Shown here piece by piece: positions 9,868 to 13,239 of a stretch of DNA of 32,000 bases. The DNA is taken from positions 90,001 through 122,000 of the forward strand of contig NC_003551.1 in the NCBI RefSeq assembly GCF_000007185.1, in the 5' to 3' direction. The notes under the pieces are model-generated. The model did no database searches, was not told the origin of the DNA, and saw nothing but the letters and a program-made list of their open reading frames with translations. Position 1 is the first letter of the stretch; each line of letters opens with the position of its first letter. The stretch is from Methanopyrus kandleri AV19. Its GTDB lineage: Archaea; JAADCQ01; Methanopyri; Methanopyrales; Methanopyraceae. The position numbers and the translations under genes were made by a program.

Positions 9868-11157
9868 TTACCGACGCTCCTCCAGTGCGTCTTTCAGTAT
9901 TTTGATAGCGCAATACTCCCCGCACATCGAGCACAGCTCCTTGGCCTGCGGCGGGCGTTCCTCCCGGTAGTGTCGTGGCTTCTTCGGGTCGATGGCGAGC
10001 TCGAACTGACGGTCCCAGTCCAGGTTCCACCGTGCTTCGGCCATCTCCTCGTTCTCTCGGCGGGCGTACTTCATGCCCCTGGCCGTGTCGGCGGCGTGAG
10101 CCGCAATGCGTGTCGCGATCACGCCGAGGATTACGTCCTTGACGTCCGGGAGCGCCAGGTGCTCGGCCGGGGTCACGTAACACAGGAAGTCGGCACCGTG
10201 GTACGCGGCGATGGCCCCGCCGATGGCCGCGGCGATATGGTCGTACCCCGGAGCCACGTCGGTCGGTACGGGACCGAGCACGTAGAACGGAGCCCCGTCA
10301 CACACGCGCTTCTGCAGTCTCACCACCGCCGGTATCTGGTCGAGCGGCACGTGGCCGGGTCCCTCCACCATAGCCTGCACACCGGCCTCGCGGCACCGGT
10401 CCACGAGCTCCCCCTGGACAACGAGCTCCCGGTGTTGGGCGGCGTCGTTGGCGTCGAGCACGGATCCGGGACGCATCGCGTCGCCTAGGGATAGGGTCAC
10501 GTCGTGCTCCCGCGCGAGCTCCAGGATGTAGTCGAAGTTCTCGTACAGGGGGTTCTCGGCGTCGTGATGGATCATCCAGGCCGCAACGATGGCACCGCCG
10601 CGCGAAACGATCCCGAGCGCTCTACCCCTCCGGAGGACGTCCTCGAGCGCGTCCAGCGTGACCGCGCAGTGTACGGTCATGAAGTCAACACCGTCCTCCA
10701 TGTGTCGCTCGATGGCCCGCAGCATGTCGTCCTCATCCATGTCCACGACGGCCCGTCCCCGTCTGGTCATTTCCACGGCCGCTTCGTACACGGGCACGGT
10801 CCCTACGGGCACGTCCACGGCCTTCATGATCCGTCGACGGATCTCTCTCAGGTCTCCACCCGTGCTGAGATCCATCACCGTGTCGGCACCGTGATCGACC
10901 GCTGCACGGGCCTTCTCCACTTCGAGGTCGGGATCGCAGACCTCCGGGGATGTTCCGACGTTGGCGTTGATTTTCACGCGGAGCCCTTCACCTATGCCGA
11001 CGGGCCGGACCTCGTCCCGACGGTCCGCGTGGGCCGGGACGACCACCCGTCCTTCGGCCACTCGTCTCGCGAGCTTCTCCGGTCGGACGCCTTCCTCCTC
11101 CGCGATCTTCCGGACCGTATCGGGTACCGTCCGCCTACACTCTTCCATCAGGGTCAC
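9868..11157 (-). CDS. thiC: Phosphomethylpyrimidine synthase ThiC
   Basis: Full-length match to ThiC blocks (NANVGTS, DTVMDLSTGG, TVHCAV, GIVSRGG, GPGHVPL, APFYVLGP), plus the C-terminal radical-SAM cluster CSMCGEYCA. The GTG start overlaps the upstream stop (GTGA). Confidence 0.95.
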   Translation of the reverse strand: MTLMEECRRTVPDTVRKIAEEEGVRPEKLARRVAEGRVVVPAHADRRDEVRPVGIGEGLRVKINANVGTSPEVCDPDLEVEKARAAVDHGADTVMDLSTGGDLREIRRRIMKAVDVPVGTVPVYEAAVEMTRRGRAVVDMDEDDMLRAIERHMEDGVDFMTVHCAVTLDALEDVLRRGRALGIVSRGGAIVAAWMIHHDAENPLYENFDYILELAREHDVTLSLGDAMRPGSVLDANDAAQHRELVVQGELVDRCREAGVQAMVEGPGHVPLDQIPAVVRLQKRVCDGAPFYVLGPVPTDVAPGYDHIAAAIGGAIAAYHGADFLCYVTPAEHLALPDVKDVILGVIATRIAAHAADTARGMKYARRENEEMAEARWNLDWDRQFELAIDPKKPRHYREERPPQAKELCSMCGEYCAIKILKDALEERR

Positions 11158-12512
11158 GGCGTACCTGCCCCTGCCCGCGCTGCCATGGTCTTAGCCAAGT
11201 TCATGAGTTGTGAGAACAACGCGTTCATTTCGAGGACCAACGGTCGCGGTAGGTAGTGCTCCCGGACGTACAGTCCGAACCAAGCGGCTGATAACGTTAC
11301 GAGGACCCAGATCAGGAACCACACCACGGCGACGGATGCCGAATCACGGTTCCTATGGGCGGCTGCGATCGGGAAGTATACGAAAAACGGCAGTGCCAGG
11401 TACGGATGTAAGGCTGTTAGGGAACCTACGATGGCCGACGCGCCGACGGCACGGACGGACTCGGACGGGATGCGCCCGAATATCCTGACGGCGTAGTCGG
11501 GTGGTTCCACGTACGCCACGAGGTAGGGTCCGAAGCGGAATGCTATGTACGAGCAGTCGTAGTCGACACGCTCACGGACCGTTACAGCGTTTTCGGCGGC
11601 GCGACCCCTTGAGTCGCCTATCCCGATCTTTATCTTGACGTCGTCTTCCGTTAGCCGACCCACGATCTTGATCGCGGCCCTCAGCGCCCGGCTTTTGGTG
11701 GGGAACCGGGCTATTACGTCGTCCCCTCCCCTGCGATGGTCCAGTACGACCCCTTCTTCCTCGTTGATCACGTCGATTACCCTGCTCATTATACCCTCCA
11801 GATACCGACGTCCGCGCTCGCGGACTAGCTCGGAGGACCCAACGATATCTAGGTAGAGGATACGGTCGGGCGCGGTGTTGGTTCGGCGGGGTGGGGGAAG
11901 CGGGTCACCACCCCGGTGGATGATCCACTCCGCCCCGATCTTGGAGAACGCGGCGAACTCGGAGTCGGCGTGACGTTCGGCCTTGGCGAACCGTTCGGTG
12001 GCAGCGGCCTGGGTGAGACCGATAGCGGCGCTACCATGCAGCCGCAGTGGGACTTGAACCGCGAATCGTAGTGCGTGGAATTTAGAGGGGGCTTCCACGG
12101 TCGCCTCGCCTCCTCCGCACTCCAGCACGGTACATTGGCACTCGTGGGCGAGCGACTGGAGGTCGTTCTCGTTCCTGTATGTGCAATACACGTATCTGGT
12201 TTCATCCAGCACTATCTTGCTGACGAGCGCCACCTCCGGGTCGTCGTACTTGAATTGTTCTATCTTCGTCAGTCCGAACCCTTCGCGTCGTAGCTCCTCC
12301 GCCACCTCACCGAGCTCGTTGGAGATTACCTGGGGAGCCGGTAGAGGGTATCCCTCGAAGCGCGTTAGTAGCATGTACATGGAGTTGAGCGTTTCCACTA
12401 TTTCCCGCTCCTCCTCGGTGATCGGGTCGTACTTGGTACCGCAGGCGACGATCTCCCCATCGACCCGCGGGGAGGCCGAGAGTTTCACGAATAGGCGTGA
12501 GGGGTGAATCAT
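11154..12512 (-). CDS. Membrane-anchored protein with putative minimal nucleotide-cyclase/GGDD palm-like domain
   Basis: Residues ~217-320 read RILYLDIVGSS...RRGGDDVIARFP...VKIKIGIGDSRGRAAENAVTVRER. This resembles the class III cyclase/GGDEF/Cas10 palm core. Two strongly hydrophobic C-terminal helices span residues ~355-415. The coding call is solid; the domain call is a by-eye motif match only. Confidence 0.5.
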   Translation of the reverse strand: MIHPSRLFVKLSASPRVDGEIVACGTKYDPITEEEREIVETLNSMYMLLTRFEGYPLPAPQVISNELGEVAEELRREGFGLTKIEQFKYDDPEVALVSKIVLDETRYVYCTYRNENDLQSLAHECQCTVLECGGGEATVEAPSKFHALRFAVQVPLRLHGSAAIGLTQAAATERFAKAERHADSEFAAFSKIGAEWIIHRGGDPLPPPRRTNTAPDRILYLDIVGSSELVRERGRRYLEGIMSRVIDVINEEEGVVLDHRRGGDDVIARFPTKSRALRAAIKIVGRLTEDDVKIKIGIGDSRGRAAENAVTVRERVDYDCSYIAFRFGPYLVAYVEPPDYAVRIFGRIPSESVRAVGASAIVGSLTALHPYLALPFFVYFPIAAAHRNRDSASVAVVWFLIWVLVTLSAAWFGLYVREHYLPRPLVLEMNALFSQLMNLAKTMAARAGAGTP

Positions 12513-12513
12513 T

Positions 12514-13239
12514 TCACTCCACCTCTTCGGGCGTTTTGACGCGTACCTTGTAGTCTCCTTTCTCGACCAACAGGCTTTCCTTCACCACCACGTACGGGAA
12601 CTTCAGATAGACGGTGCGGGTGGCTACGGTGCTGGCTATGAAGCGGGCGAGACGGATCATCGTCGGCTTCAGGTCTTCGCCCACTAAAACCTCCACCTTG
12701 AAGGGAGGTCGTTCCTTCGCGACCTCCGAGGAGTGAAGCGCGAGCACTCCGAACTCTTCGGGCCCCACACACAAGTCGTTCCGAACGAGGACCAGTGGTG
12801 TATGGTCGAGATCGAGCTCTTCCCGGGCGGTGACGGCGATCGCTCCGGCTTTCTCCCGTAACTCCCGGTAGTTGCGGGGATCGACGGCGATGAAGCACAC
12901 GTAACGGTCTTCCTCCGCCACTGGCTCGAGCTCCTCCTCGGCGACAACGGTTTTCACGACGGGGATCTTGCTGAGGAACTTGTCCAGTACAGTGTCGACC
13001 CCCTTGAGTGAGAACTCGAGACCCGCCATTCCACCTATTTCCCTGACCACTTCCCTGGCCACACTACGGACGTCGAGTTCGGCGTGCTTCTTCAGGTCGT
13101 ACACGGGGTAATCCCTTTTGGCTAACGCGTCGAGGACCTGGAGGCTGACGTCGGCACCTATACGCTTCGCCTCCTCGTCCGGGATCCACACCTTATCCTT
13201 ACCCGCGTCCGACCTCTCGGCCTTGGCCACGTTCGTCAC
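12514..13239 (-). CDS. Hypothetical protein, first gene of the thiC-containing operon
   Basis: 241-aa ORF with native acidic composition. Its stop lies 1 nt before the start of the next gene. By eye, its N-terminal ~130 aa resemble the N-terminal region of the downstream 452-aa protein. The GTG start is uncertain. Confidence 0.6.
   Translation of the reverse strand: MTNVAKAERSDAGKDKVWIPDEEAKRIGADVSLQVLDALAKRDYPVYDLKKHAELDVRSVAREVVREIGGMAGLEFSLKGVDTVLDKFLSKIPVVKTVVAEEELEPVAEEDRYVCFIAVDPRNYRELREKAGAIAVTAREELDLDHTPLVLVRNDLCVGPEEFGVLALHSSEVAKERPPFKVEVLVGEDLKPTMIRLARFIASTVATRTVYLKFPYVVVKESLLVEKGDYKVRVKTPEEVE

Follow-up and report, generated by a model that had tools for sequence, protein, structure and literature searches.

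We analyzed a 32,000-nucleotide (nt) stretch of the Methanopyrus kandleri AV19 genome (NC_003551.1, positions 90,001 to 122,000, forward strand; hereafter the window), in which two adjacent minus-strand genes encode a 241-amino-acid (aa) protein (12514..13239; hereafter the partner) and a 452-aa cyclase-like membrane protein (11154..12512). An initial annotation had claimed both open reading frames (ORFs), together with a minimal nucleotide cyclase or palm core in the longer product; the ORF calls agreed with it, and the peptides it had quoted (CQCTVLECGGG, RILYLDIVGSSELVRERG, HRRGGDDVIARFP, and VKIKIGIGDSRGRAAENAVTVRER) were present. The spacer between the partner stop and the 452-aa ORF start is 1 nt (junction at 12510..12528, minus strand, read as ...GAGGTGGAG TGA a ATG), and a Shine-Dalgarno-like GAGGTG lies upstream of the start, a layout consistent with translational coupling of the two genes. 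Downstream, the stop of the 452-aa ORF overlaps by GTGA the start of thiC (9868..11157, minus strand; Pfam ThiC_Rad_SAM, E 1e-189). Both junctions had been described earlier, as had the native composition of the pair, whose GC content (0.59 to 0.66) is at the level of its surroundings in a window of ~61% GC. The partner gene, the 452-aa ORF, thiC, and an RNA-ligase-like ORF (356 aa; 8775-9845; PF09414, E 3.5e-8) are co-directional on the minus strand, and an aspartokinase gene (from 13269) is divergent from the partner gene.

Residues 216 to 340 of the 452-aa protein (palm P2; 11493..11867, minus strand) are, by sequence profile and structural model, homologous to the palm of class III nucleotide cyclases, strongly diverged and at the level of fold or superfamily. 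When both proteins were scanned with Pfam, NCBIfam, and PADLOC, nothing significant was returned (PADLOC PycC, E 0.03 at best). With a 6-sequence Methanopyrus-type profile searched against PDB sequences, the top matches were class III cyclases only (Rv1900c, E 0.007; Ma1120; 3mr7); they spanned residues 218 to 305 and placed D222 on the Asp of FTDIVGST and G263-D264 on the cyclase G-D. A 17-sequence profile matched Rv1900c at E 3.6e-6 and Ma1120 at ~0.01, and a profile from the sub-alignment of P2 and its upstream copy P1 (described below) matched Rv1900c at E 1.4e-6. The 6-sequence profile was also searched against a library of 1.84e9 representative proteins (E<1e-3), giving 26 matches, of which 20 were Pfam-scanned; 16 of the 17 scanned matches outside the family carry Guanylate_cyc aligned in register. 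The same search uncovered a 402-aa Methanobacterium protein with 881 relatives. The AlphaFold2 (AF2) model of the 452-aa protein (mean predicted local distance difference test [pLDDT] score, 74; 80 to 95 over residues 110 to 300) has palm topology at residues 218 to 335 (strand, two helices, two strands, helix, strand; pLDDT, ~82 to 93). Foldseek against the PDB gave 48 matches at E<=1e-3, and among the top 50 matches listed all were class III adenylyl cyclases except two GTP cyclohydrolase III (GCH III) chains. The profile and Foldseek matches thus bore out the minimal cyclase or palm core that had been proposed.

For the conservation analysis, 82 distinct orthologue sequences were used, with ~25% identity between the two classes that they cover; direct searches had turned up only Methanopyrus-like homologues, five for the 452-aa protein and four for the partner. 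D222 (codon at 11847..11849, minus strand, within the DRILYLDIVG peptide encoded at 11838-11867) aligns with the first of the two metal-binding Asp residues in class III cyclases, and D264, within the G262-G263-D264-D265 hairpin between strands 2 and 3 (11718..11729, minus strand), aligns with the second (the Asp of GD). These putative metal ligands, D222 and D264/D265, had been named in advance as residues to check, and all are invariant in 82/82, as are S226, G234, G262, G263, K273, G297, G299, and E307. Position 260, four residues before D264 and at the site of the substrate-specifying Lys in cyclases, is R in 76/82 and K in 6/82; the second residue of the substrate-specifying pair (Asp, Glu/Cys in cyclases) belongs to an arm that is missing here. 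In the helix-4 region, S/T301, E307, and A309 are invariant, and R302 is kept in 79/82. By these alignments, P2 keeps an intact two-metal site, formed by D222 and D264/D265. Elsewhere in the window, tblastn also picked up faint similarity to the cyclase domain; the stretch that spans P2 (30298-30636) is antisense to glmS and was rejected, and a further one lies at 27544-27822 (E 0.059).

The class III cyclase homology domain (CHD) of the PF00211, LipJ/Rv1900c, and Ma1120 type, which gave the best sequence and structure matches, shares with P2 its palm topology, the strand-1 Asp in a hydrophobic D-[IV]-x-x-S-[ST], the G-D in the strand 2-strand 3 hairpin, the basic residue four positions before the hairpin Asp, the A-x-F-P-[ST]-x-x-x-A-L-x-A helix, and R/K-[IV]-G-I-G on strand 4. 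P2 differs from it in lacking the arm and the conserved helix-4 Asn/Arg, in falling below the Pfam threshold, and in its GGDD hairpin (xGDx in the class III CHD). The 452-aa family further differs in carrying two units per chain, the first degenerate, and in its own invariant K273 and E307, its C-terminal anchor of two transmembrane (TM) segments, and its orphan N-terminal domain. Because several defining features fail, P2 is not classed as a member of the class III cyclases.

The N-terminal ~215 aa had been described as free of recognizable motifs, a description that no longer holds, since residues 105 to 205 (P1; 11898..12200, minus strand) form a degenerate first copy of the palm, delimited by hhalign, the AF2 model, and conservation. 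Comparison of the P1 and P2 sub-alignments by hhalign gave 98% probability (E 1.7e-13, 100 columns), and in the AF2 model the order of strands and helices at residues 107 to 200 is that of residues 218 to 335. P1 is without the metal-binding Asp residues and without one helix. Its own invariant residues are R106, K144, G165, T167, E173, R174, and E195, with K191 kept in 81/82. On this profile and model evidence, the 452-aa protein is a single-chain internal tandem duplication of a palm unit. Upstream of P1 lies a family-specific N-terminal domain (aa 17 to 104; 12201..12464, minus strand), delimited from family alignments, in which G25, T26, P30, E35, and N43 are invariant and AF2 confidence is low; searched against PDB profiles, it gave no significant match and no detectable relatives. 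At the other end, hydropathy identified a membrane anchor (aa 352 to 416; 11265..11459, minus strand) of two hydrophobic segments joined by a very short loop. The two C-terminal hydrophobic helices claimed earlier were therefore found, although as one weaker segment (~aa 355 to 385) and one strong segment (~aa 392 to 415), followed by an amphipathic tail to aa 452; AF2 places helices over residues 348 to 446. Orthologues in Methanobacteriaceae have a C-terminal two-helix hairpin.

The conserved domain of the partner spans aa 24 to 235 (12535..13170, minus strand; partner alignment), and its invariant residues include F116, P121, Y124, R153-N154-D155, R199, S203-T204, R208, and K220. Aligned by hhalign with residues 127 to 330 of a 336-aa Methanobacterium NYN protein, which is encoded immediately upstream of the cyclase-like gene there, the 241-aa protein gave 99.6% probability (E 9e-25). 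By this profile comparison, the NYN-fused proteins of Methanobacteriaceae (OG0001213) contain, in their C-terminal ~210 aa, the orthologue of the partner. Those proteins carry an N-terminal Zc3h12a-type NYN RNase domain (PF11977 in 12/12 aligned members), for which PDB matches include MCPIP1 and KHNYN, and the acidic residues of the NYN motifs IDxSN, ADH, and SND are kept in 12/12 aligned Methanobacteriaceae partners. Outside the NYN part, the partner domain had no Pfam, NCBIfam, or PDB profile match; its AF2 model, built from 5 sequences only, had a pLDDT score of 51, and Foldseek on this poor model gave a best E value of 0.29. The initial annotation had further claimed that the partner is paralogous to the N-terminus of the 452-aa protein, as a duplicated sensor domain. 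This claim was rejected: BLASTP found nothing, and hhalign gave 0.1% with shallow alignments and <=1% with alignments of 74 to 85 sequences, including partner versus P1 and partner versus P2.

The start of the partner is ambiguous, the longest ORF beginning at a GTG at 13239 with an alternative GTG at 13230, and the database entry P0006 (99% identical to the partner) begins 3 codons later, with MAKAER; with either start codon, the divergent aspartokinase start is ~30 to 50 nt away. Among the orthologous loci, partner ORFs were unusually long at L026:3204-4562 (452 aa) and L061:3852-5000 (382 aa), and the gap between partner and cyclase-like gene was 146 to 387 nt in six loci. These long ORFs and wide gaps may be insertions, frameshifts, or start-calling artifacts in Methanobrevibacter-type metagenome-assembled genomes.

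A scan of GTDB species genomes returned 127 loci, of which 80 were kept, from Methanopyri and Methanobacteriaceae (Methanobacterium, Methanobrevibacter, and allied genera), with one copy of the pair found per genome. Partner and cyclase-like genes were adjacent in 79/79 loci from which both ORFs were recovered, with a gap of <=20 nt in 63/79 and of zero or an overlap in 55/79. In Methanobacteriaceae the order is a metallophosphoesterase (Metallophos) gene, the NYN partner, the cyclase-like gene, and then argJ. The Metallophos gene lies upstream of the pair in the 70 Methanobacteriaceae loci with both ORFs recovered (<=30 nt away in 46/70). Its product, for example at L005:345-1091 (248 aa), had CpdA as best near-full-length NCBIfam match (E 3e-14, below cut-off) and also a partial match to an "anti-phage phosphoesterase" NCBIfam model. 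argJ follows the pair in 67/76 Methanobacteriaceae loci, several of the 76 being too short to reach it. Only in Methanopyri is the pair followed by thiC and then the RNA-ligase-like gene, and a thiC query found no match in any Methanobacteriaceae locus. The RNA-ligase-like ORF lies directly downstream of thiC, a position kept in all Methanopyri loci; the two genes overlap by 4 nt in the Methanopyri contigs L001 and L002.

The pair is thus flanked by aspartokinase and by thiC (Methanopyri) or argJ (Methanobacteriaceae), a core synteny conserved in >80 loci, and no relatives were found among 2.9 million viral contigs. It is a vertically inherited core-genome module confined to pseudomurein-walled methanogens and is not mobile. 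Two loci carried other taxonomic labels, L043 (JBNGDB010000002.1; Methanomicrobiales) and L063 (JACIWM010000034.1; Bipolaricaulota); both have the typical Methanobacteriaceae gene order, and their proteins are 57 to 70% identical to Methanobacterium proteins, so they are probably mis-binned contigs and not occurrences outside pseudomurein methanogens. We also considered, and rejected, an association of the pair with the Mur-ligase and aminotransferase genes of pseudomurein: these genes lie within 3 to 6 kb of the pair in L005 (Methanobacterium), an arrangement shared by 7 to 8 of 85 loci, and the proximity is not general because it is confined to a small subclade.

Part of this was already on record. 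The 452-aa ORF matches M. kandleri AAM01324.1 (WP_011018479.1; UniRef Q8TZ32) exactly, and for this protein the source annotation gives "Predicted diverged member of adenylate cyclase 3 family" as well as "adenylate cyclase." Lupo et al. (2025; PMC11915815) described genes specific to pseudomurein-containing archaea in five syntenic clusters, one of which, cluster D, consists of OG0001213 (Zc3h12a-like NYN ribonuclease) and OG0001214 ("Nucleotide cyclase," >1 TM segment). In the supplement of that study, OG0001214 includes WP_088335150.1 (Methanopyrus sp. KOL6; Gene3D 3.30.70.1230, SSF55073) and members from four other pseudomurein genomes, and the partner orthologue WP_088335152.1 belongs to OG0001213. 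WP_088335150.1 is our P0001, 96% identical to the 452-aa protein, and cluster D is the same gene pair as the one described here. There, on InterProScan labels and TM counts only, the cluster was set aside with the reading "nucleic acid metabolism or signal transduction"; unlike the present analysis, that account is without domain dissection, residue analysis, or mechanism (PMC11915815). The identification as a diverged cyclase and as a pseudomurein-specific pair is therefore not new; new here are the P1 duplication, the orthology of the partner to NYN-fused proteins, and the adjacency of the two genes in 79/79 loci.

As to function, the 452-aa protein, membrane-anchored and built from a duplicated, stripped-down class III palm, would be an enzyme that faces the cytoplasm. 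P1 and P2 may pack as an intramolecular pseudo-heterodimer with one nucleoside triphosphate (NTP) site, like C1 and C2 of mammalian adenylyl cyclase, where, as here, one polypeptide has two palms, one of them with the metal Asp pair, and is attached to the membrane; the 452-aa protein differs in its minimal units, in having the degenerate unit first and the catalytic-type unit second, and in its simple C-terminal hairpin anchor. The two-metal site of D222/D264/D265 could then turn an NTP into a cyclic mononucleotide or another product, and the ~210-aa domain of the partner may be its receptor or a regulatory subunit. In Methanobacteriaceae, the NYN RNase is a plausible output, and the CpdA-like metallophosphoesterase is a plausible signal-degrading enzyme. 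Taken whole, a membrane-anchored tandem-palm enzyme that makes a nucleotide signal, with a partner that reads or regulates that signal, is our best explanation, and we hold it tentatively, at slightly less than an even chance of being right. Most likely the pair is a housekeeping nucleotide-signaling module and not a defense system, a leaning already present in the initial annotation and borne out by the core synteny, the native GC content, and the lack of viral relatives.

Several observations weigh against this explanation. In the AF2 model, helix 302-316 comes directly after strand 294-299, leaving no strand 4-strand 5 dimerization arm, and HMMER alignments to cyclases fall out of register at the arm position; the lack of the arm had been anticipated in the initial annotation. 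Its proposal that N308 and R313 stand for the Asn and Arg of VNxASR did not survive the alignment (N in 5/82 and R in 1/82), which leaves no canonical helix-4 Asn/Arg pair. With both the arm and this pair missing, the chemistry is not inferable from class III cyclases. The profile check proposed earlier gave a divided result: the cyclase matches in the PDB and in the large library stood, but the Pfam thresholds did not, with no PF00211 (Guanylate_cyc) match at E<=10 in 6 Methanopyri-type members or at E<=0.01 in the Methanobacterium orthologue P0011, and with neither GGDEF (PF00990) nor mCpol (PF18182) thresholds reached by the 452-aa protein. Long Foldseek alignments, which bear on how P1 and P2 would pack, had a root mean square deviation of ~18 Å. 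The partner domain has no recognizable nucleotide-binding fold, and in Methanopyri the partner is the ~210-aa C-terminal domain only, without NYN. Within the M. kandleri window there is no NYN domain and no close orthologue of Metallophos, so the proposed effector logic does not extend to all lineages. Among close relatives, shared gene order can also reflect inheritance rather than function, and no enzymatic or genetic study of the pair was found in the literature, including a search by accession number.

The same fold may instead carry out other chemistry, as in GCH III or Thg1, by hydrolysis or by nucleotide transfer to RNA or a small molecule, with the palm acting together with the NYN RNase (in Methanobacteriaceae) in membrane RNA processing or repair; we consider this unlikely but not remote. 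GCH III (MJ0145, PDB 2qv6, PF05165), which functions in riboflavin/F420 synthesis, is archaeal and, like the 452-aa protein, is a single-chain tandem of palm-like units; it was matched by Foldseek at E 4e-4 over 273 columns. It shares with P2 a GGD[DN] hairpin and a short, arm-free strand 4-to-helix link, GIGx[ST]xx[ED]A, and the motifs are in register (GGDD...GIGxSRxxAxE versus GGDN...GIGRTAEDA). The absence of the arm and of the Asn/Arg pair needed for canonical cyclization points in the same direction, as do the RNase on the partner in most lineages, the RNA-ligase-like gene two genes downstream in Methanopyri, and the fact that "nucleic acid metabolism" is among the two readings given to cluster D (PMC11915815). 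Unlike the 452-aa protein, however, GCH III is a soluble enzyme without a partner gene, and both of its units carry the strand-1 Asp. Kinship at the sequence level was considered and rejected: despite the in-register motifs, hhalign against the 2qv6 sequence gave a nonsignificant 4.6%, and there was no HMMER (E<=10) or Pfam match to GCH III. Every significant sequence match was to a cyclase, no Thg1 was present among the top 50 Foldseek matches listed, and the RNA-ligase linkage is restricted to Methanopyri and interrupted by thiC. If the palms merely bound a nucleotide or the partner and tethered the partner to the membrane, the protein would be a pseudoenzyme or scaffold. P1 is clearly degenerate, the canonical transition-state residues are absent, and all curated family thresholds failed, as such a reading would have it; even so, despite ~25% identity, all 82 sequences keep both metal Asp positions, the additional D265, S226, and a basic residue at 260 without exception, a pattern typical of retained catalysis, and we regard a scaffold as distinctly improbable.

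A defense module against viruses (of the Pycsar, CBASS, Panoptes, or mCpol type), in which a cyclase acts with a TM or RNase effector, had been raised by the initial annotation through an analogy to Pycsar. That analogy was not supported: the weak PADLOC match to PycC reached only E 0.03, the genes lie in a syntenic core genome, and the viral contigs held no relatives. P2 does share with the Cas10 palm, mCpol (OptS of Panoptes), and GGDEF domains the palm superfamily, small size, and an R/K-x-G-G-D-[DE] hairpin; the GGDD of this hairpin occurs as such in Cas10 and mCpol, and the P2 hairpin R-x-G-G-D-D also resembles R-x-G-G-[DE]-E-F of GGDEF domains. Some mCpol genes, moreover, carry a 2TM module as a fusion or are coupled to an RNase (PMC12657218), and the Metallophos neighbor has the partial anti-phage phosphoesterase match noted above. 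Strand 1 of P2, however, is cyclase-like (D-I-V-G-S-S) and not D-x-D-x-F-K, there was no profile match to Cas10, mCpol, or GGDEF (including no Pfam mCpol match), and none of the three was among the top 50 Foldseek matches listed. The locus likewise differs from Cas10 and mCpol systems in being vertical and part of the core genome, with no linkage to CRISPR, CARF, SAVED, or S-2TM-beta. It is the synthase, not a sensor, that bears the fused TM hairpin, and the pair is kept across the sampled Methanobacteriaceae and Methanopyri genomes, unlike defense genes. A defense island is disfavored because the pair is single copy, has housekeeping neighbors in a synteny spanning two classes, has native GC content, and lacks relatives in the viral contigs, and we regard a defense role as very unlikely. 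The overlap with thiC had also been given functional weight, and a thiamine-related role would fit both the GTGA junction and the same gene order in all Methanopyri loci. The linkage exists in Methanopyri only, though, and carries no functional weight because in Methanobacteriaceae the pair is followed by argJ instead of thiC; an Rfam scan near the gene pair found no thiamine pyrophosphate (TPP) riboswitch and no other RNA element, leaving such a role barely credible.

Returning to the nucleotide-signaling explanation, its most specific form would be a housekeeping second-messenger pathway unique to pseudomurein archaea, with a membrane-anchored, single-chain mini-cyclase, a new ~210-aa receptor domain, and, in Methanobacteriales, an NYN RNase gated by that domain and a CpdA-like reset; we consider this elaborated pathway rather unlikely. 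If true, the nucleotide signal is possibly non-canonical. In murein bacteria, the membrane cyclase CdaA, through c-di-AMP, is linked to wall homeostasis. The pathway would then be an archaeal counterpart of this bacterial link between membrane cyclase and wall homeostasis, with a cyclase-to-RNase logic otherwise known from defense. Few genes are common to Methanopyrales and Methanobacteriales and absent elsewhere, and such lineage-restricted genes are candidates for envelope-tied biology and, in Methanobrevibacter of the rumen and gut, for selective targets. The formerly vague label can now be put to the test as a tandem palm with one two-metal site (D222/GGDD), an obligate partner domain, and a CpdA-like neighbor. 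Should the product be non-canonical or the partner a new receptor fold, the pair would be of interest for methanogens and for nucleotide signaling; otherwise, it would be one more diverged cyclase.

Other features of the window were recorded alongside the pair. A 243-aa ORF without a Pfam match (14669-15400, plus strand) adjoins the aspartokinase gene, and a counterpart of 242 to 249 aa occupies the same position in all Methanopyri loci examined. On the other side of the locus, a 952-aa ORF (5980-8838, plus strand) has an N-terminus that resembles a signal peptide and lacks any Pfam domain, and within it lies the sole low-GC stretch of the window (6001-8000; 0.54 and 0.46 versus ~0.61). The equivalent place in the Methanopyri contigs L002 to L004 holds a 933-aa protein without Pfam matches; L001 is without a protein of this type, and asparagine synthase is directly next there. 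The 952-aa ORF may encode a variable surface protein, or the segment may have been acquired. The sole Rfam/ARAGORN match in the window was a tRNA-Met (CAT) at 3212-3285 (minus strand).

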